From IMG/VR virus record IMGVR_UViG_3300042445_002023: DNA of 64,000 nucleotides. One strand, written 5' to 3'. The DNA comes from a virus (taxonomy: Duplodnaviria > Heunggongvirae > Uroviricota > Caudoviricetes). Positions 32,172 to 61,833 of this stretch are shown piece after piece. The notes beneath the pieces are model-generated. The model was not told the origin of the DNA. It did no database searches and worked only from the letters and a program-made list of their open reading frames with translations. Every line of letters starts with the position of its first letter. The first letter of the stretch is position 1. Both the position numbers and the translations under genes were made by a program.

Positions 32172-32402
32172 ATGAAGTGTATTAAAACAATTAAGGAAGG
32201 AAAATCCTATACGTTAGGAGAAATTAAAAGAGTGACTGATATCGAGGCAGATGAGAGAGTAAAAGGTGGGCATTGGAAATTTGTTCCAAAGAGCGAATGG
32301 AAATCATCCAAAGGAAAGAGTAAGACCGAAGTGATTACCGAAGAAGTCGAAACTCAAGTTGAAGAAATTAAAACAAAAACAAAGAAGGAAAAAAATAAAT
32401 AA
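32172..32402 (+). CDS. hypothetical lysine-rich protein (76 aa)
   Basis: GGAGG site upstream; stop overlaps the helicase start. Confidence 0.4.
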   Translation: MKCIKTIKEGKSYTLGEIKRVTDIEADERVKGGHWKFVPKSEWKSSKGKSKTEVITEEVETQVEEIKTKTKKEKNK

Positions 32403-33763
32403 TGCAAGATATAGACAACTTATCGAAATACGGACAGTCTTTCCAATCTAAAGTTGTATCTGCATTATTAACCGATAATAAATTCTTAGACCAAATATCA
32501 GAAATTGTTACACCCAAATTTTTTGAATCGGATGCGAACAAATGGATAGTTAGTGAAATTGTTAACTATCATACTGAATATAGACAAGCACCCACAATGG
32601 ATGCTTTCAAAGTAAGTTTATCGAAATTAGATAACAAAGGATTACAAACAACGATTGTAGAACAATTACGCCATATCTACACACAAGTAGGTAACGTAAC
32701 TGATTTAGCCTACATTAAAACGGAATTTACATCCTTTTGTAAAAATCAAAACTTAAAACAAGTAATTCTACAATCAGTAGATTTATTAAAGGCAGGAAGT
32801 TACGATAAAATCAAAGACCTCGTAGATAGGGCAATGAAGGTTGGAGTTGAAAACGATTTAGGACATGATTATGTTTTAGATTTTGATGCACGTTCAACTG
32901 ATGAAAAGAGAGATACCGTCCCAACTGATTGGAAACCCATTACTGATTTAATGGATGGAGGATTAGGACCAGGAGAATTAGGAGTAGTAGTTGCACCATC
33001 TGGTGTTGGTAAGACATGGATTTTAACCGCATTAGGTGCATCGGCAGTTAAAGCAGGATTAAGTGTAGTTCATTATACAATGGAGTTATCAGAACACTAT
33101 GTAGGTGCAAGATACGATACAGTCTTTACTCATATCCCATCTGCAGATTTGAGAGATAGAAAAGAGGATGTTAAAGCAAAAATCAAAGGATTAAAAGGAA
33201 AATTACTTATTAAATATTATCCACCGAAGGGGGTAAGTGTTAAGAAGTTGCAAATGCATATTGAAAAAATGATTGCAGCCGGAAACCGACCTGACCTGAT
33301 TATTGTGGATTACGCAGATTTACTTCTTTCCCATTCAAATAAAACGGATTCAACTTATGCCGAACAAGGTGGTGTTTACATTGACCTTAGAGGTATGGGT
33401 GGTGAATTGAGAATTCCAATATGGACTGCTTCTCAAACAAATCGTTCTGCGATAGATTCAGATGTAATTGAAGCAGATAAGATTGCAGATTCATATGCAA
33501 AGGTTATGAATGCGGATTTCATTATGAGTTGGAGTAGAAAATCAAAAGACAAATTGAATAACACTGCAAGGGCTCACATTATGAAAAACCGATTCGGACC
33601 AGATGGAATTACATTTCCTTGTAAGATGGATACAAACACAGGATTTATTGAAGTATATGATGCAGCTTCCGCTGATGGAATCATTGCTTCAAAGGAATCT
33701 AACAATGGACAAATGGTTCAAAAACAACTTCTGCATAAAAAGTATGTAGAAAATATGGGATAA
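32402..33763 (+). CDS. DnaB-like replicative DNA helicase
   Basis: Walker A (VVVAPSGVGKTW), Walker B (LIIVDYADLL), DnaB-like N-terminal domain. Confidence 0.65.
   Translation: MQDIDNLSKYGQSFQSKVVSALLTDNKFLDQISEIVTPKFFESDANKWIVSEIVNYHTEYRQAPTMDAFKVSLSKLDNKGLQTTIVEQLRHIYTQVGNVTDLAYIKTEFTSFCKNQNLKQVILQSVDLLKAGSYDKIKDLVDRAMKVGVENDLGHDYVLDFDARSTDEKRDTVPTDWKPITDLMDGGLGPGELGVVVAPSGVGKTWILTALGASAVKAGLSVVHYTMELSEHYVGARYDTVFTHIPSADLRDRKEDVKAKIKGLKGKLLIKYYPPKGVSVKKLQMHIEKMIAAGNRPDLIIVDYADLLLSHSNKTDSTYAEQGGVYIDLRGMGGELRIPIWTASQTNRSAIDSDVIEADKIADSYAKVMNADFIMSWSRKSKDKLNNTARAHIMKNRFGPDGITFPCKMDTNTGFIEVYDAASADGIIASKESNNGQMVQKQLLHKKYVENMG
33720..33759 (+). repeat. 40-bp direct repeat, copy 1 (the 3' end of the helicase gene)
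   Basis: AAAAACAACTTCTGCATAAAAAGTATGTAGAAAATATGGG occurs again exactly at 34873-34912. Confidence 0.9.
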
Positions 33764-33766
33764 GTT

Positions 33767-34873
33767 ATGAAATTATTACTAGGAGATTGTTTAGATAAAC
33801 TTAAAGAATTAGATGATAATTCGGTGGATAGTATTGTTACTGACCCGCCATATGGACTTGCATTTATGGGCAAACACTGGGATTATGATGTTCCATCACA
33901 GCAGATATGGGAAGAATGCCTTCGTGTTCTAAAACCAGGAGGTCATATCCTTTCATTCGCGGGTAGTAGAACTTATCACAGAATGGCTGTAAGAATTGAA
34001 GATGCAGGGTTTGAGATTAGAGACCAGATTATGTGGATATATGGTTCAGGGTTTCCTAAATCACATAACATAGGACATAAGTTAGAAGAATGGCAAGGTT
34101 GGGGAACTGCTCTTAAACCGGCACATGAACCTATTGTAATGGCAAGAAAACCTTTGAGTGAAAGCACAGTAGCAGAGAATGTTTTAGAATGGGGAACTGG
34201 TGGGATAAACATAGATGGTTGCAGGATTGAACTTAATGGTGATTATAAATCAAAAGCAAATGGTAGACCCTCATTGACAGGATTAGATGATGGTTATGAT
34301 AGTAGTAACGCTAACATAGCAGATACAATAGGCAGATTTCCAGCAAATGTAATCTTTGATGAAGAAGCAGGTAGGTTATTGGATGAACAAAGTGGAGTAT
34401 CAAAATCACCAGGAGGTAGTGGGGATAAATCAATGGGAGAATTGGGCAAAAACGGTAAATATGGAAACTATGCATTAGATGTTAAAGCTGCAAATTTAGG
34501 TGGATTGGGAGATGTTGGTGGTGCTAGTAGATTTTTCTACTGTCCTAAAACATCAAAGAGTGATAGAAACGAAGGAAGTAATAACACACACCCGACTGTC
34601 AAACCAACGGATTTGATGCTATACCTTATTCGTTTGGTTACTAAAAACGATGGAACGATATTAGACCCGTTTATGGGAAGTGGAAGTACTGGTAAAGCAG
34701 CAATTAGAGGTGGTTTTGATTTTATTGGTATTGAAAGAGAAAAAGAATACTTTGAAATTTCGAAAACAAGAATTGAATATGAAAAAAACAGACCGGTTAG
34801 CAAACCAATAAAAGGAAACCGTGTAGAAGTGAAACCGGAAGTGAAAGAAAAAATAAATCAATTTTTTGAGTAA
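33767..34873 (+). CDS. DNA N6-adenine/N4-cytosine methyltransferase, beta class
   Basis: Motif IV (IVTDPPYGLAF) lies before motif I (LDPFMGSGSTGKAA); the gene is flanked by 40-bp direct repeats. Confidence 0.7.
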   Translation: MKLLLGDCLDKLKELDDNSVDSIVTDPPYGLAFMGKHWDYDVPSQQIWEECLRVLKPGGHILSFAGSRTYHRMAVRIEDAGFEIRDQIMWIYGSGFPKSHNIGHKLEEWQGWGTALKPAHEPIVMARKPLSESTVAENVLEWGTGGINIDGCRIELNGDYKSKANGRPSLTGLDDGYDSSNANIADTIGRFPANVIFDEEAGRLLDEQSGVSKSPGGSGDKSMGELGKNGKYGNYALDVKAANLGGLGDVGGASRFFYCPKTSKSDRNEGSNNTHPTVKPTDLMLYLIRLVTKNDGTILDPFMGSGSTGKAAIRGGFDFIGIEREKEYFEISKTRIEYEKNRPVSKPIKGNRVEVKPEVKEKINQFFE

Positions 34874-34912
34874 AAAACAACTTCTGCATAAAAAGTATGT
34901 AGAAAATATGGG
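34873..34912 (+). repeat. 40-bp direct repeat, copy 2
   Basis: Identical to 33720-33759; duplicates the last 12 codons and the stop of the helicase gene. Confidence 0.9.
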
Positions 34913-34913
34913 G

Positions 34914-34946
34914 TAACCCTATTATAATAAAGGGGTTAGCTTTTTG
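34914..34946 (+). terminator. possible rho-independent terminator: TAACCCT ... AGGGGTTA followed by TTTTT
   Basis: Imperfect hairpin plus T-run immediately after the second repeat copy. Confidence 0.4.
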
Positions 34947-35079
34947 TTAGTATGGGATAATAAAAAAGAAAAAAAATATTAAAAAAAATCATTTCTTTTT
35001 TTCATATATACAATAGTTATACTCACCAACAAGATATTTTGTTGGAGTAATTTTTAACAATTTAACAAACAAACAATTT

Positions 35080-35250
35080 ATGGCAACATCAACTGAATTA
35101 TTCGAACAAATGAAGGATTTATTTACTCAATTCGAAGCAGAACACAACGGAGCAACTAAAGCATCCAAATCAAGAGCAAGAAAAGCGATTGGAGAATTAA
35201 AAAAACTTATTACAGATTATAGAAAATTATCAGTAGAAGAGAACAAATAA
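35080..35250 (+). CDS. small basic protein (56 aa), histone-H1-like or nucleoid-associated (not in the supplied track)
   Basis: ATG at 35080, in-frame TAA at 35248; sequence KASKSRARKAIGELKKLITDYRK. Confidence 0.3.
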   Translation: MATSTELFEQMKDLFTQFEAEHNGATKASKSRARKAIGELKKLITDYRKLSVEENK

Positions 35251-60140: not shown

Positions 60141-61014
60141 AATAACATTCGTATATAACCACGCTCCAAATGAAACGTGGTCAACTCCTTTATCATTATT
60201 AAATGAATTCCAAAAGAGAGGATGGGAAACTGAAATAGTTTCAATAACTGCAACTGATGATTCTCAATTACAATTATGGATTCAACAAGATATTCCAACT
60301 GATATTGTATTATTTATGGATTGGGGTAGAATTGATTCTAAGTGGTTAGATAAATCATTAAAACCAAATACATTTTGGATACAAGAAAGTGGAGATGACC
60401 CACAAAACTTTGTAAGAAACTATCCAAAAGCAAGTAGGTTTCATTATACAATAACACCGGATAAAGTATCGGCAGAAGAATATAGAAAAAGAGGTATAAC
60501 TGCTGATTGGGTTTCCCATTGGGCAGATACGGCAGTTCAATTTCCAATGAATGAAAGACCTCAATATGTTGCGGTTACAAGTAGAGGAAGAGGTGGTTCT
60601 GAATTTTTAGATTACCTTACGGAATGGGGTGAGGGTCTAATTGGAAACCGAAACGGAATGAATGCAATAGAACATACTGAATTTTTGAATAGTGGTTTAA
60701 TGGTTATTCAGAATAGTAGATGGGGAGAAATAACTCGTAGATTATTTGAAGGAATGGCATGTGGTAAGATGGTTATAACTGATAGATTAAGAGAATCAAC
60801 TGGTCTTTCTGAAATGTTTATAGAGGGTGAAGAAATAGTTTATTATGATAATATGTTAGATTGTATTGAAAAGATAAATTATTATAATGAAAATAGAGAT
60901 GAACTTAATCGTATTGCCTTAAACGGAATGAATAAGGTTTTAAATAACCATACTCAAATACAACGAGTAGATAAGTTAATAACGGAATTTAATAATTTTA
61001 AAAAAATTAAATAA
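60127..61014 (+). CDS. glycosyltransferase with a GT-B C-terminal domain
   Basis: RLFEGMACGKMVITD resembles the GT1/GT4 C-terminal motif. Confidence 0.4.
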   Translation: MQPSKITFVYNHAPNETWSTPLSLLNEFQKRGWETEIVSITATDDSQLQLWIQQDIPTDIVLFMDWGRIDSKWLDKSLKPNTFWIQESGDDPQNFVRNYPKASRFHYTITPDKVSAEEYRKRGITADWVSHWADTAVQFPMNERPQYVAVTSRGRGGSEFLDYLTEWGEGLIGNRNGMNAIEHTEFLNSGLMVIQNSRWGEITRRLFEGMACGKMVITDRLRESTGLSEMFIEGEEIVYYDNMLDCIEKINYYNENRDELNRIALNGMNKVLNNHTQIQRVDKLITEFNNFKKIK

Positions 61015-61242: not shown

Positions 61243-61833
61243 ATGAATTATTTAAATAGATGGGATATTATTAATATCTTAATTAAAAAAAACAATTATA
61301 AATCTTATTTAGAAGTTGGAACACAAGACCCCAATTCAAATTTCAATAAAATAGAAATTGAAAATAAAGTATCGGTAGACCCATTTCCAAAAGGAGAAGT
61401 AACATTTGTTGGTACATCTGATGAATACTTTCAATCAATATTAGAAGATGTAAAATTTGATATTATTTTTATAGATGGATTACATCACGATGACCAAGTA
61501 TTAAGAGATATTGAAAACTCTTTAACTCATTTATCGGATAGTGGAATTATTGTATGTCATGATTGTTTACCAACAACCGAACATATGCAAGAAAGAAACG
61601 ACCATGGCGGTATATGGTTGGGTGATGTTTGGAAAGCAATTGCAGAATTGAGAGTTGAAAGAATTGATTTAGACATTAAAGTAATTGATTCCGATTTGGG
61701 GTGTGGATTGATTAAACCAGGAACAAACATACCATATATGACTAATGAAAATTATTTAACATATAGTTATTATAATTTACACAAATGGCAACTTATGAAT
61801 ATAATATCAGTAGAGGATTTCTTAAAATTATAA
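61243..61833 (+). CDS. class I SAM-dependent methyltransferase, TylF/MycF-like (sugar O-methyltransferase family)
   Basis: IIFIDGLHHDDQVLRDIEN ... GIIVCHDC, matching the Methyltransf_24-like signature. Confidence 0.5.
   Translation: MNYLNRWDIINILIKKNNYKSYLEVGTQDPNSNFNKIEIENKVSVDPFPKGEVTFVGTSDEYFQSILEDVKFDIIFIDGLHHDDQVLRDIENSLTHLSDSGIIVCHDCLPTTEHMQERNDHGGIWLGDVWKAIAELRVERIDLDIKVIDSDLGCGLIKPGTNIPYMTNENYLTYSYYNLHKWQLMNIISVEDFLKL

Follow-up and report, generated by a model that had tools for sequence, protein, structure and literature searches.

Illegitimate recombination at microhomologies produces mosaic junctions and gene gains in phage genomes, and template-switch models such as microhomology-mediated break-induced replication (MMBIR) have been applied to such events. 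A different kind of insertion is associated with free-standing homing endonuclease genes, whose 'intronless homing' in T4-like phages leads to insertions that regenerate the ends of the interrupted genes. Moreover, T4-type phages harbour promoter-early/stem-loop (PeSL) cassettes, which give rise to mini-circles (Arbiol et al. 2010, PMC2839356; PMC4122927). The locus described here lies in a stretch of 64,000 nucleotides, hereafter the window, of a Caudoviricetes virus (IMG/VR record IMGVR_UViG_3300042445_002023), in which the gene of an orphan DNA methyltransferase is bracketed by two direct copies of the 3' end of a DnaB-like helicase gene. This arrangement is an insertion scar, which probably arose by short-homology and microhomology recombination with a related phage and was later spread by homologous recombination. 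The elements that define it are the following.

32402-33763, plus strand: gene of the DnaB-like replicative helicase, 453 amino acids (Pfam DnaB_C, 2.5e-16; PHROG 19, 1.5e-76)
33720-33763, plus strand: left repeat copy, perfect over 40 nt (33720-33759), then A, then TAA; functional helicase 3' end
33767-34873, plus strand: gene of the predicted orphan beta-class DNA methyltransferase, 368 amino acids (Pfam PF01555, 1.4e-36; PHROG 67, 6e-80)
34873-34916, plus strand: right repeat copy, a non-coding scar with the GGG TAA ending of empty-site helicase genes
33760-34912, plus strand: segment of 1153 nt missing from empty-site relatives, equally writable as 33720-34872

Two exact copies of the 40-mer AAAAACAACTTCTGCATAAAAAGTATGTAGAAAATATGGG are present in the window, at 33720-33759 and 34873-34912; no third copy was detected there with up to 3 mismatches allowed, and 0 matches are expected by chance (100 shuffles). 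The perfect direct repeat reported in a preliminary description of this DNA is thereby borne out by exact search, as is the position of the right copy directly at the methyltransferase stop, the last A of that TAA being the first base of the copy. The same description had the repeat cover the last 12 codons and the stop region of the helicase gene. The 12 whole codons are indeed contained in it, plus two partial ones, whereas the stop belongs only to an imperfect repeat of 44 nt (repeat finder, family D8), whose single mismatch distinguishes GGA TAA on the left from GGG TAA on the right. Owing to this extension, both copies end on a helicase-frame stop codon. The left copy corresponds to the last 44 nt of the helicase gene, which encode the C-terminus ...QKQLLHKKYVENMG*, and it ends in GGA TAA, as is usual in relatives with a methyltransferase.

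The insertion itself is observed by comparison with relatives, for which 80 loci (numbered with the prefix L) were retrieved from IMG/VR with the helicase protein at 78-100% identity, identical helicase proteins being found by exact protein sequence look-up. In the seven closest of them (L001-L007, 98-100% helicase identity), the stop GGGGTAA is directly followed by CCCTATTATAATAAAGGGGTTAGC..., and the gene of the histone H1-like protein Hc1 begins 163-164 nt further on. The site is likewise empty in L165-L171, whose helicase protein is identical to that of the window, and in the more distant L009, L011-L014 and L053 of the same clade, and at least 18 contigs of the close clade present the helicase stop, an identical hairpin and Hc1 163-164 nt later. 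Since the downstream sequence of the empty sites equals the right copy of the window and what follows it base for base, the window contains an exact insertion of 1153 nt. This upholds the earlier view of the methyltransferase as a cassette inserted at the helicase end, and the proposed check, namely relatives in which the helicase runs straight into the terminator without the methyltransferase, is provided by L001-L007 and L165-L171. The polymorphism is directly visible within the population, as the identical helicase protein is also found together with the methyltransferase, in L164 and five similar contigs. No near-identical match to the 2.9-kb region was found among 50,697 GenBank phages, and the best cultured relatives by protein, Flavobacterium phage immuto and Microcystis phage Mel-JY01, as well as an uncultured 484-kb phage, reach 42-48% identity; hence, the phage is known from metagenomes only.

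Each copy of the repeat contains a palindrome:

33729-33751, plus strand: hairpin/palindrome of 9 bp within the left copy, TTCTGCATA-AAAAG-TATGTAGAA
34882-34904, plus strand: hairpin/palindrome of 9 bp within the right copy, same structure as left

The palindrome folds at -8.5 kcal/mol (z -4.8), with none of 200 shuffles equally stable. It is intact in the clade of the window and broken in many relatives, without family-wide conservation, and its variable positions are wobble bases opposite fixed second codon positions, so that compensation cannot show in a covariation analysis. A stable hairpin of this kind could suggest a generic regulatory element, and short-k assemblers can be misled by repeats of about 40 nt, but either explanation, regulatory element or assembly or sequencing artefact, is exceedingly improbable. 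The repeat is present in two copies in 64 kb and in one copy in every empty-site genome, and the structure recurs in at least 8 contigs from several samples and assemblers as well as in L086, which has different neighbouring sequence; the two refutations envisaged in the preliminary description, a generic repeated element and a sequencing or assembly error, thus find no footing. The only promoter-like match over the repeat, at 34900-34928, is no better than shuffles (18 found vs 17.9 expected). The identical methyltransferase occurs in at least 8 public contigs. The contigs L162-L164 match the window at 99.96-99.98% identity and possess both repeat copies, and the independent contig L086 shares the right junction. 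Each junction is a unique sequence that could be spanned by one 150-nt read. Because the scarred structure is found in several independent assemblies, an assembly artefact is excluded.

Both junction sequences can be read directly. On the left, GGATAA-GTT-ATGAAATTA... (GGATAA-GTT-ATG) constitutes the native helicase-methyltransferase junction of L019, L119, L131, L132 and L141, and nearly so of L106. Its occurrence in these distant relatives identifies it as a native donor-type gene junction and therefore as no product of random insertion. The same observation counts against a transposon or insertion sequence (IS) with a 40-bp target-site duplication, an explanation to which the perfect direct repeat immediately flanking the inserted DNA lends some appeal and which is nevertheless of negligible probability. 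The insert comprises one methyltransferase ORF; a transposase, integrase or other recombinase gene was found neither in it nor beside it, and terminal inverted repeats are lacking at its ends. In addition, 40 nt is far above the usual size of a target duplication, and the independent scars described below measure 34 and 22 nt, a variability in length that, together with the lack of mobility gene and inverted repeats, effectively excludes transposition. The likeness to a target-site duplication that the preliminary description had drawn accordingly fails for any duplication of transposase type. The insert shows no compositional anomaly, its GC content matching that of its neighbours.

The right junction is of a different nature and rests on a short stretch of bases common to both parents, which is observed at two positions:

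33720-33725, plus strand: recipient-side microhomology AAAAAC in the helicase gene, codons Q-K-Q, from comparison with donor-type 3' flanks
34873-34878, plus strand: right junction, 6-nt overlap AAAAAC common to donor-type methyltransferase 3' flanks and the helicase gene

Related methyltransferases with native 3' flanks are found in L190, L191 and L192 (...CAATTTTTTGGTTAAAAAAC|TCACAG), and donor-type flanks read ...TTTTTTGGTTAAAAAAC|TCACAG or ...AATCAATTTTTTGGTTAAAAAAC, then the unrelated spacer TCACAG... In L192, which contains the central module of the window's methyltransferase at 94.7% identity, identity to the window extends to 34878, while the helicase identity of the right copy begins at 34873. 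As the two ranges meet at 34873-34878, the parental overlap is AAAAAC only; were the donor sequence GGT TAA, the match at the junction would be GGTT[A/C]AAAAAC, 10 of 11 positions. With few shared bases and no longer homology, the right junction has the properties of a microhomology or template-switch joint, and the L179 junction, introduced below, shares about 3 nt. Taking the donor type from relatives, the right junction is thus best described as an illegitimate joint at a microhomology. Both copies in the window display the synonymous variants CAA...CTG, which among the close-clade empty alleles examined occur only in L182, all others having CAG...CTA, and the copies of L179 likewise share one haplotype, CTA CAC, with the local empty alleles L003 and L006. 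Since the haplotype is shared within each event, both copies derive from the recipient, and the common CAA/CTG would fit descent from a single recipient template, by template switching, or from two crossovers between sister genomes.

Recurrence of such scars is observed as well. Among 129 loci with a helicase end that were scanned, a significant second helicase-end copy is confined to three groups, the window (40 nt), L179 (34 nt, 100% identity) and L008 (22 nt, 95% identity), and outside the close clade no cargo-bearing relative has one. All three scars are situated within a clade whose site is ancestrally empty, and relatives with 'native' cargo are devoid of a scar. L179, a 166-kb contig of the same 97-98% identity cloud, has the helicase end duplicated around different methyltransferase genes, two of them, which differ from each other (226 and 241 amino acids). 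These are followed by the remnant of a Mom-gene start (about 20 nt) joined to the 34-nt helicase-end copy, the hairpin and Hc1. Sequence of the local type continues without a mismatch over some 90-100 nt to the junction, and, as in the window, GGA TAA stands to the left and GGG TAA to the right. Because its junction differs from that of the window, L179 is an independent scar, and it provides no evidence for a regulatory repeat. Measured back from the last G of ...ATGGG, where the duplicated helicase segment ends, the right junctions of the three events are at 40, 34 and 22 nt. The duplications of the window, L179 and L008 are thus independent events with different breakpoints, which speaks against a target duplication of fixed length and against a site-specific crossover at a single point. 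Recombination of the att type was rejected on the same grounds, as the crossover points differ (40/34/22 nt) and no recombinase is encoded in or beside the insert.

Two side observations concern the same loci. In L179 (3338-3380), the spacer after the helicase stop (GTTATAAAATTATTAATAAATCTGAAAAAAATAGAAAAT) opens with a degenerate methyltransferase start, in which ATG is changed to ATA, and has 38 nt in common with an unrelated ORF that follows the methyltransferase in L081-L085, which represents another patchwork junction. In L008 (6340-6470) and L176 (4740-4870), the helicase ORF is extended beyond ...ENMG by about 13 hydrophobic residues (GVLIP...), followed by an insert of 55-75 nt and a degenerate second helicase end, next to which the start of a Cys-rich ORF is found in L008; these structures may be what is left of an earlier, eroded insertion.

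The order of events that we infer starts from the ancestral arrangement of helicase, terminator hairpin and Hc1. The donor would have been a related phage with the methyltransferase gene natively behind its helicase gene, and this methyltransferase gene would have been joined into the recipient through two short-homology events. The left exchange would have taken place within the highly conserved last 17-20 nt or so of the helicase gene (...TATGTAGAAAATATGGG), thereby importing GGA-TAA-GTT-ATG. At the right joint, the AAAAAC past the donor methyltransferase stop would have paired with the AAAAAC of the helicase codons Gln-Lys-Gln, 40 nt before the recipient stop; the 3' end of the donor gene would accordingly have read ...TTTGAGTAAAAAAC, then unrelated sequence. 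As the landing point (33720-33725) is located upstream of the left departure point (after 33759), the intervening 40 nt of the recipient would be present twice. Template switching (copy-choice or MMBIR-like) is one conceivable route, and two sequential single crossovers among the many genome copies per infected cell are the other, the phage's own recombination proteins of the UvsX/gp32 type offering a setting for crossovers. The left copy would then complete the helicase, the right copy would leave the methyltransferase with the old 3' hairpins of the helicase gene, and the scarred cassette would afterwards have been spread and remodelled among strains by ordinary homologous recombination.

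Several points weigh against this reconstruction. The actual donor is absent from the databases, which offer only mosaic matches (at best 76-78% overall, with segments at 95-99%), so that the 6-nt microhomology has to be deduced from relatives; in addition, the donor-type flank reads GGT TAA, as opposed to GAG TAA in the window. Identical copies could also stem from a helicase end that was the same in donor and recipient, or from later gene conversion between the copies. Furthermore, all three scars are duplications and none is a small deletion, a pattern that may indicate a more specific mechanism, for instance a site-preferred break, than random illegitimate joining. Expression and activity of the methyltransferase, finally, are predicted only. 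As a rather unlikely variant, the last 40 nt or so of the helicase gene with their 9-bp palindrome, together with the hairpin, would form a preferred break or stalling site, maybe targeted by an HNH enzyme, which captures modification cassettes by break-induced template switching. If true, break-site capture would amount to an integron-like 'modification island' operating in the absence of an integrase and accommodating tandem methyltransferases with swappable recognition modules as well as Mom genes.

The later spread and remodelling of the cassette, as postulated for recombination with a related phage, can be traced in several relatives. L086, known only as a 4.2-kb contig, is identical in its right junction, scar and downstream sequence, apart from 2 mismatches over some 500 nt. 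The N- and C-terminal modules of its methyltransferase are about 97-100% identical to those of the window, with unrelated sequence between them, over the following region of the window (478-780 in L086).

34222-34520, plus strand: central variable module of the methyltransferase, presumed target-recognition domain, unrelated in L086

Upstream, L086 has 22 nt of the end of a 241-aa methyltransferase where the window has the helicase. The same scar next to a different module and a different upstream gene implies that the scar predates the remodelling of the cassette. The central module of the window recurs at 95% identity in L081-85, L192 and P0001, with extra insertions there; P0001 is encoded on a 3344-nt contig (sample 3300059473) with the helicase, a 470-aa methyltransferase and Hc1 164 nt later. 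These differences look like modular swapping of specificity.

L182 is an empty-site genome with an overall divergence of 5-6%. No difference from the window is seen in the final 110 nt of its helicase gene, which include the rare haplotype of the repeat, or in the 64 nt beyond the insertion point, while the rest of the helicase gene differs by 5.9%; at this background, 110 mismatch-free bases would be expected by chance with a probability of about 0.001 (0.941^110). The L182 allele would represent either the pre-insertion state or a product of precise excision, and the pattern of flanking single-nucleotide polymorphisms (SNPs) fits both. Excision of the cassette through the repeats is plausible, and its precise product would be an empty allele of just this repeat haplotype. 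This allele and the direct repeats around a single gene could also be accounted for by a Campbell-type process, in which a circle with the methyltransferase and one helicase end integrates and is excised via the 40-nt homology; the phage has its own recombination genes, and ORFs flanked by PeSLs in phages RB49 and phi1 make mini-circles by such recombination (PMC2839356). Such a circle, however, covers the spread of the cassette and not its origin, as it requires an earlier flanked copy to obtain its helicase end. Moreover, methyltransferase-bearing relatives outside the close clade lack the right-hand helicase copy, the three scars differ in length and junction (40, 34 and 22 nt), and the repeat is coding sequence instead of a promoter-plus-stem-loop cassette, all of which renders the circle doubtful. 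Its junction, likewise to be expected with low probability, would read ...TTTGAGTA + 40-mer + ATAAGTTATG..., i.e. methyltransferase end, 40-mer, ATAAGTT and methyltransferase start. Scans with the right junction gave no match in metagenome contigs and only L086 in viral contigs; they turned up no circular junction in these collections, though no search was aimed at it. A broader scan of metagenome contigs with the helicase end and hairpin retrieved one contig, already among the known relatives.

Across all relatives, the helicase gene and Hc1 are separated by about 91-190 nt in some cases and by 1.0-3.1 kb in the others. The long spacers are occupied by 1-3 tandem beta-class methyltransferases, Mom-family genes (PF25680, 6e-53) and ORFs of 330-405 amino acids without known function, and in a few loci a methyltransferase is directly preceded by the gene of an HNH endonuclease. 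The helicase-to-Hc1 spacer is thus a hotspot for DNA-modification genes. The Mom-family gene, whose family name refers to adenine modification, is located downstream of the methyltransferases in L015-L022, L137 and L141. Tandem methyltransferases share their 52-57-nt 5' ends (ATGAAATTACTATTAGGAGATTGTTTAGA...) at 92-98% identity in L016, L017/L018, L049/L112, L119 and L131/L132, where the proteins are otherwise only about 37% identical; the two paralogues of L049/L112 are about 88% identical outside the variable module.

An HNH ORF of 191 amino acids directly precedes the methyltransferase in L022 (6359-7029), L098 (958-1530) and L121 (3406-3963). In L022, a 13-nt remnant of a methyltransferase start (GTTATGAAATTCTTAT) stands before the HNH module, pointing to a homing-type insertion within the 5' end of the methyltransferase gene. 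From such genes, present directly upstream of methyltransferases in L022/L122, L098 and L121, an endonuclease-triggered origin of the scar can be derived: a homing-type enzyme of a co-infecting relative would cut near the helicase end or the methyltransferase start, and the broken end would invade the donor and copy the cassette before being recaptured imprecisely, so that duplications of the helicase end would arise at this site again and again. The methyltransferase-start remnant in L022 is in line with this, as are the 22-nt duplication in L008, after which the start of the Cys-rich ORF resembles the N-terminus of an L022-type HNH protein, the three independent duplications inside the same 40 nt, and the recipient haplotype that reaches the junction in two events. 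On the other hand, the hotspot of the window contains no endonuclease gene, and a homologue of the L022 HNH protein was looked for in the window and not found. The HNH assignment has weak Pfam support (E = 0.008), with the motif visible in the sequence; the HNH genes track methyltransferases and not the helicase, the pair in L121 being about 3 kb away from it, and the cleavage site is hypothetical. Hence, we deem an endonuclease-triggered event unlikely and retain microhomology recombination with a related phage as the preferred explanation.

With respect to the gene acquired, the methyltransferase is assigned to the beta class (N6_N4) by its Pfam score (N6_N4_Mtase, PF01555, 126.9 bits vs a cut-off of 26.7) and by its motif order, in which DPPY (motif IV, residues 26-29) is N-terminal to FMGSGSTG (motif I, near residue 300 in the C-terminal part). 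Its best matches in the Protein Data Bank (PDB) are CcrM (6pbd, 2.8e-21), DpnA and RsrI. The gene is intact and stands alone, no partner endonuclease having been found. Its function is judged from knowledge of the family, on the basis of which protection of the phage DNA from host restriction is the most likely role. As the start codon lies only 3 nt past the helicase stop, the methyltransferase is presumably co-transcribed with the helicase, and the same distance leaves no room for a promoter of its own. A +1 frameshift or readthrough that fuses the methyltransferase to the duplicated helicase tail was considered and dropped, since a supporting signal was lacking; the helicase frame is +1 relative to that of the methyltransferase. 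Downstream of the scar, three further features delimit the locus.

34914-34946, plus strand: terminator-like hairpin, TAACCCT...AGGGGTTA, then GCTTTTTG; the same sequence follows the helicase stop in empty-site genomes
35004-35022, plus strand: conserved box ATATATACAATAGTTATAC upstream of Hc1, shared by all relatives; delimits the variable spacer on its right
35080-35250, plus strand: Hc1 (histone H1-like) gene (Pfam PF07432, 6e-10); conserved right neighbour of the hotspot

The hairpin (UAACCCU...AGGGGUUA, then GCUUUUUG) is placed directly 3' of the right copy and folds at -11.5 kcal/mol, in agreement with the terminator-like structure noted there in the preliminary description; a simple terminator scan did not call it, since its loop exceeds 8 nt. 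Hc1, a protein of 56 amino acids resembling chlamydial histone H1, is encoded directly downstream of the hotspot in all relatives, and genes for a RecA/UvsX-like protein, a gp32-like protein and a 5'-3' exonuclease are found just upstream in the same phage. Elsewhere in the window, eight direct repeats of 40-45 nt on the plus strand (18153, 21288, 23977, 26759, 27300, 38524, 47738 and 54692) follow the pattern ATTTGG(A/T)AAT...ATT.TTCGTATCTT and resemble a phage promoter or other regulatory motif, and a pair of 40-nt direct repeats at 60461-60500 and 61364-61403 (family D13, 73% identity, 903 nt apart) may correspond to paralogous genes.

The locus offers an unusually well-resolved natural case of a lytic phage gaining an anti-restriction gene, in which the empty site, the donor-type junctions, the 6-nt microhomology and the duplication are all readable from environmental genomes. 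Moreover, the helicase-Hc1 spacer of this uncultured phage group is a site of shuffling for the specificity modules of methyltransferases and for Mom and HNH genes, and it thereby bears on phage-host arms races as well as on the reading of strain-level variation in viromes.

Among the described systems, PeSL cassettes resemble the locus in that a single accessory ORF is enclosed by stem-loop-containing direct repeats in a large phage with T4-like recombination genes, is present or absent among close relatives, and could conceivably be excised by repeat recombination. Unlike PeSLs, which are dispersed through hyperplastic regions, the repeat is the coding 3' end of the helicase gene at one locus and contains a hairpin without a promoter; a PeSL combines a sigma-70-like early promoter with a terminator stem-loop at many loci, and the formation of mini-circles is a feature of PeSLs. 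With morons and orphan anti-restriction methyltransferases, the cassette shares a stand-alone gene of the N6_N4 family that is absent from near-identical strains and placed between conserved genes. Nevertheless, it is not the classical moron that had been suggested earlier, for it is separated from the helicase gene by 3 nt, has neither a promoter nor a terminator of its own and reuses the terminator hairpin of the helicase; in addition, it occupies a hotspot that in relatives holds 1-3 tandem methyltransferases, Mom-family and HNH genes. At the protein level, it corresponds to CcrM, RsrI and DpnA (PDB 6pbd, 1eg2 and 5hek; 2.8e-21 to 4.6e-13) in the succession of motif IV (DPPY), variable region and motif I (FxGxG), whereas only the catalytic and SAM-binding modules align and the central 100-120 residues or so are unrelated, so that the target sequence cannot be inferred.

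Intronless homing is similar inasmuch as the insertion is located at a conserved gene end and regenerates it, and the HNH module of L022 with its duplicated methyltransferase start fits the same picture; in contrast to homing, the insert of the window encodes no endonuclease, and any link would be indirect. The closest correspondence is with illegitimate recombination, which is matched by a 6-nt microhomology junction, the lack of a dedicated recombinase and a donor among related phages, while a duplication between departure and landing points is the typical signature of a template switch. The finding is therefore a fairly ordinary example of the pickup of an anti-restriction gene by a phage and no new kind of element. 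What sets it apart from other illegitimate events is that both parental junction types and the empty site can be recovered from natural populations, and that the same 40-nt stretch at the 3' end of an essential gene has been struck at least three times.

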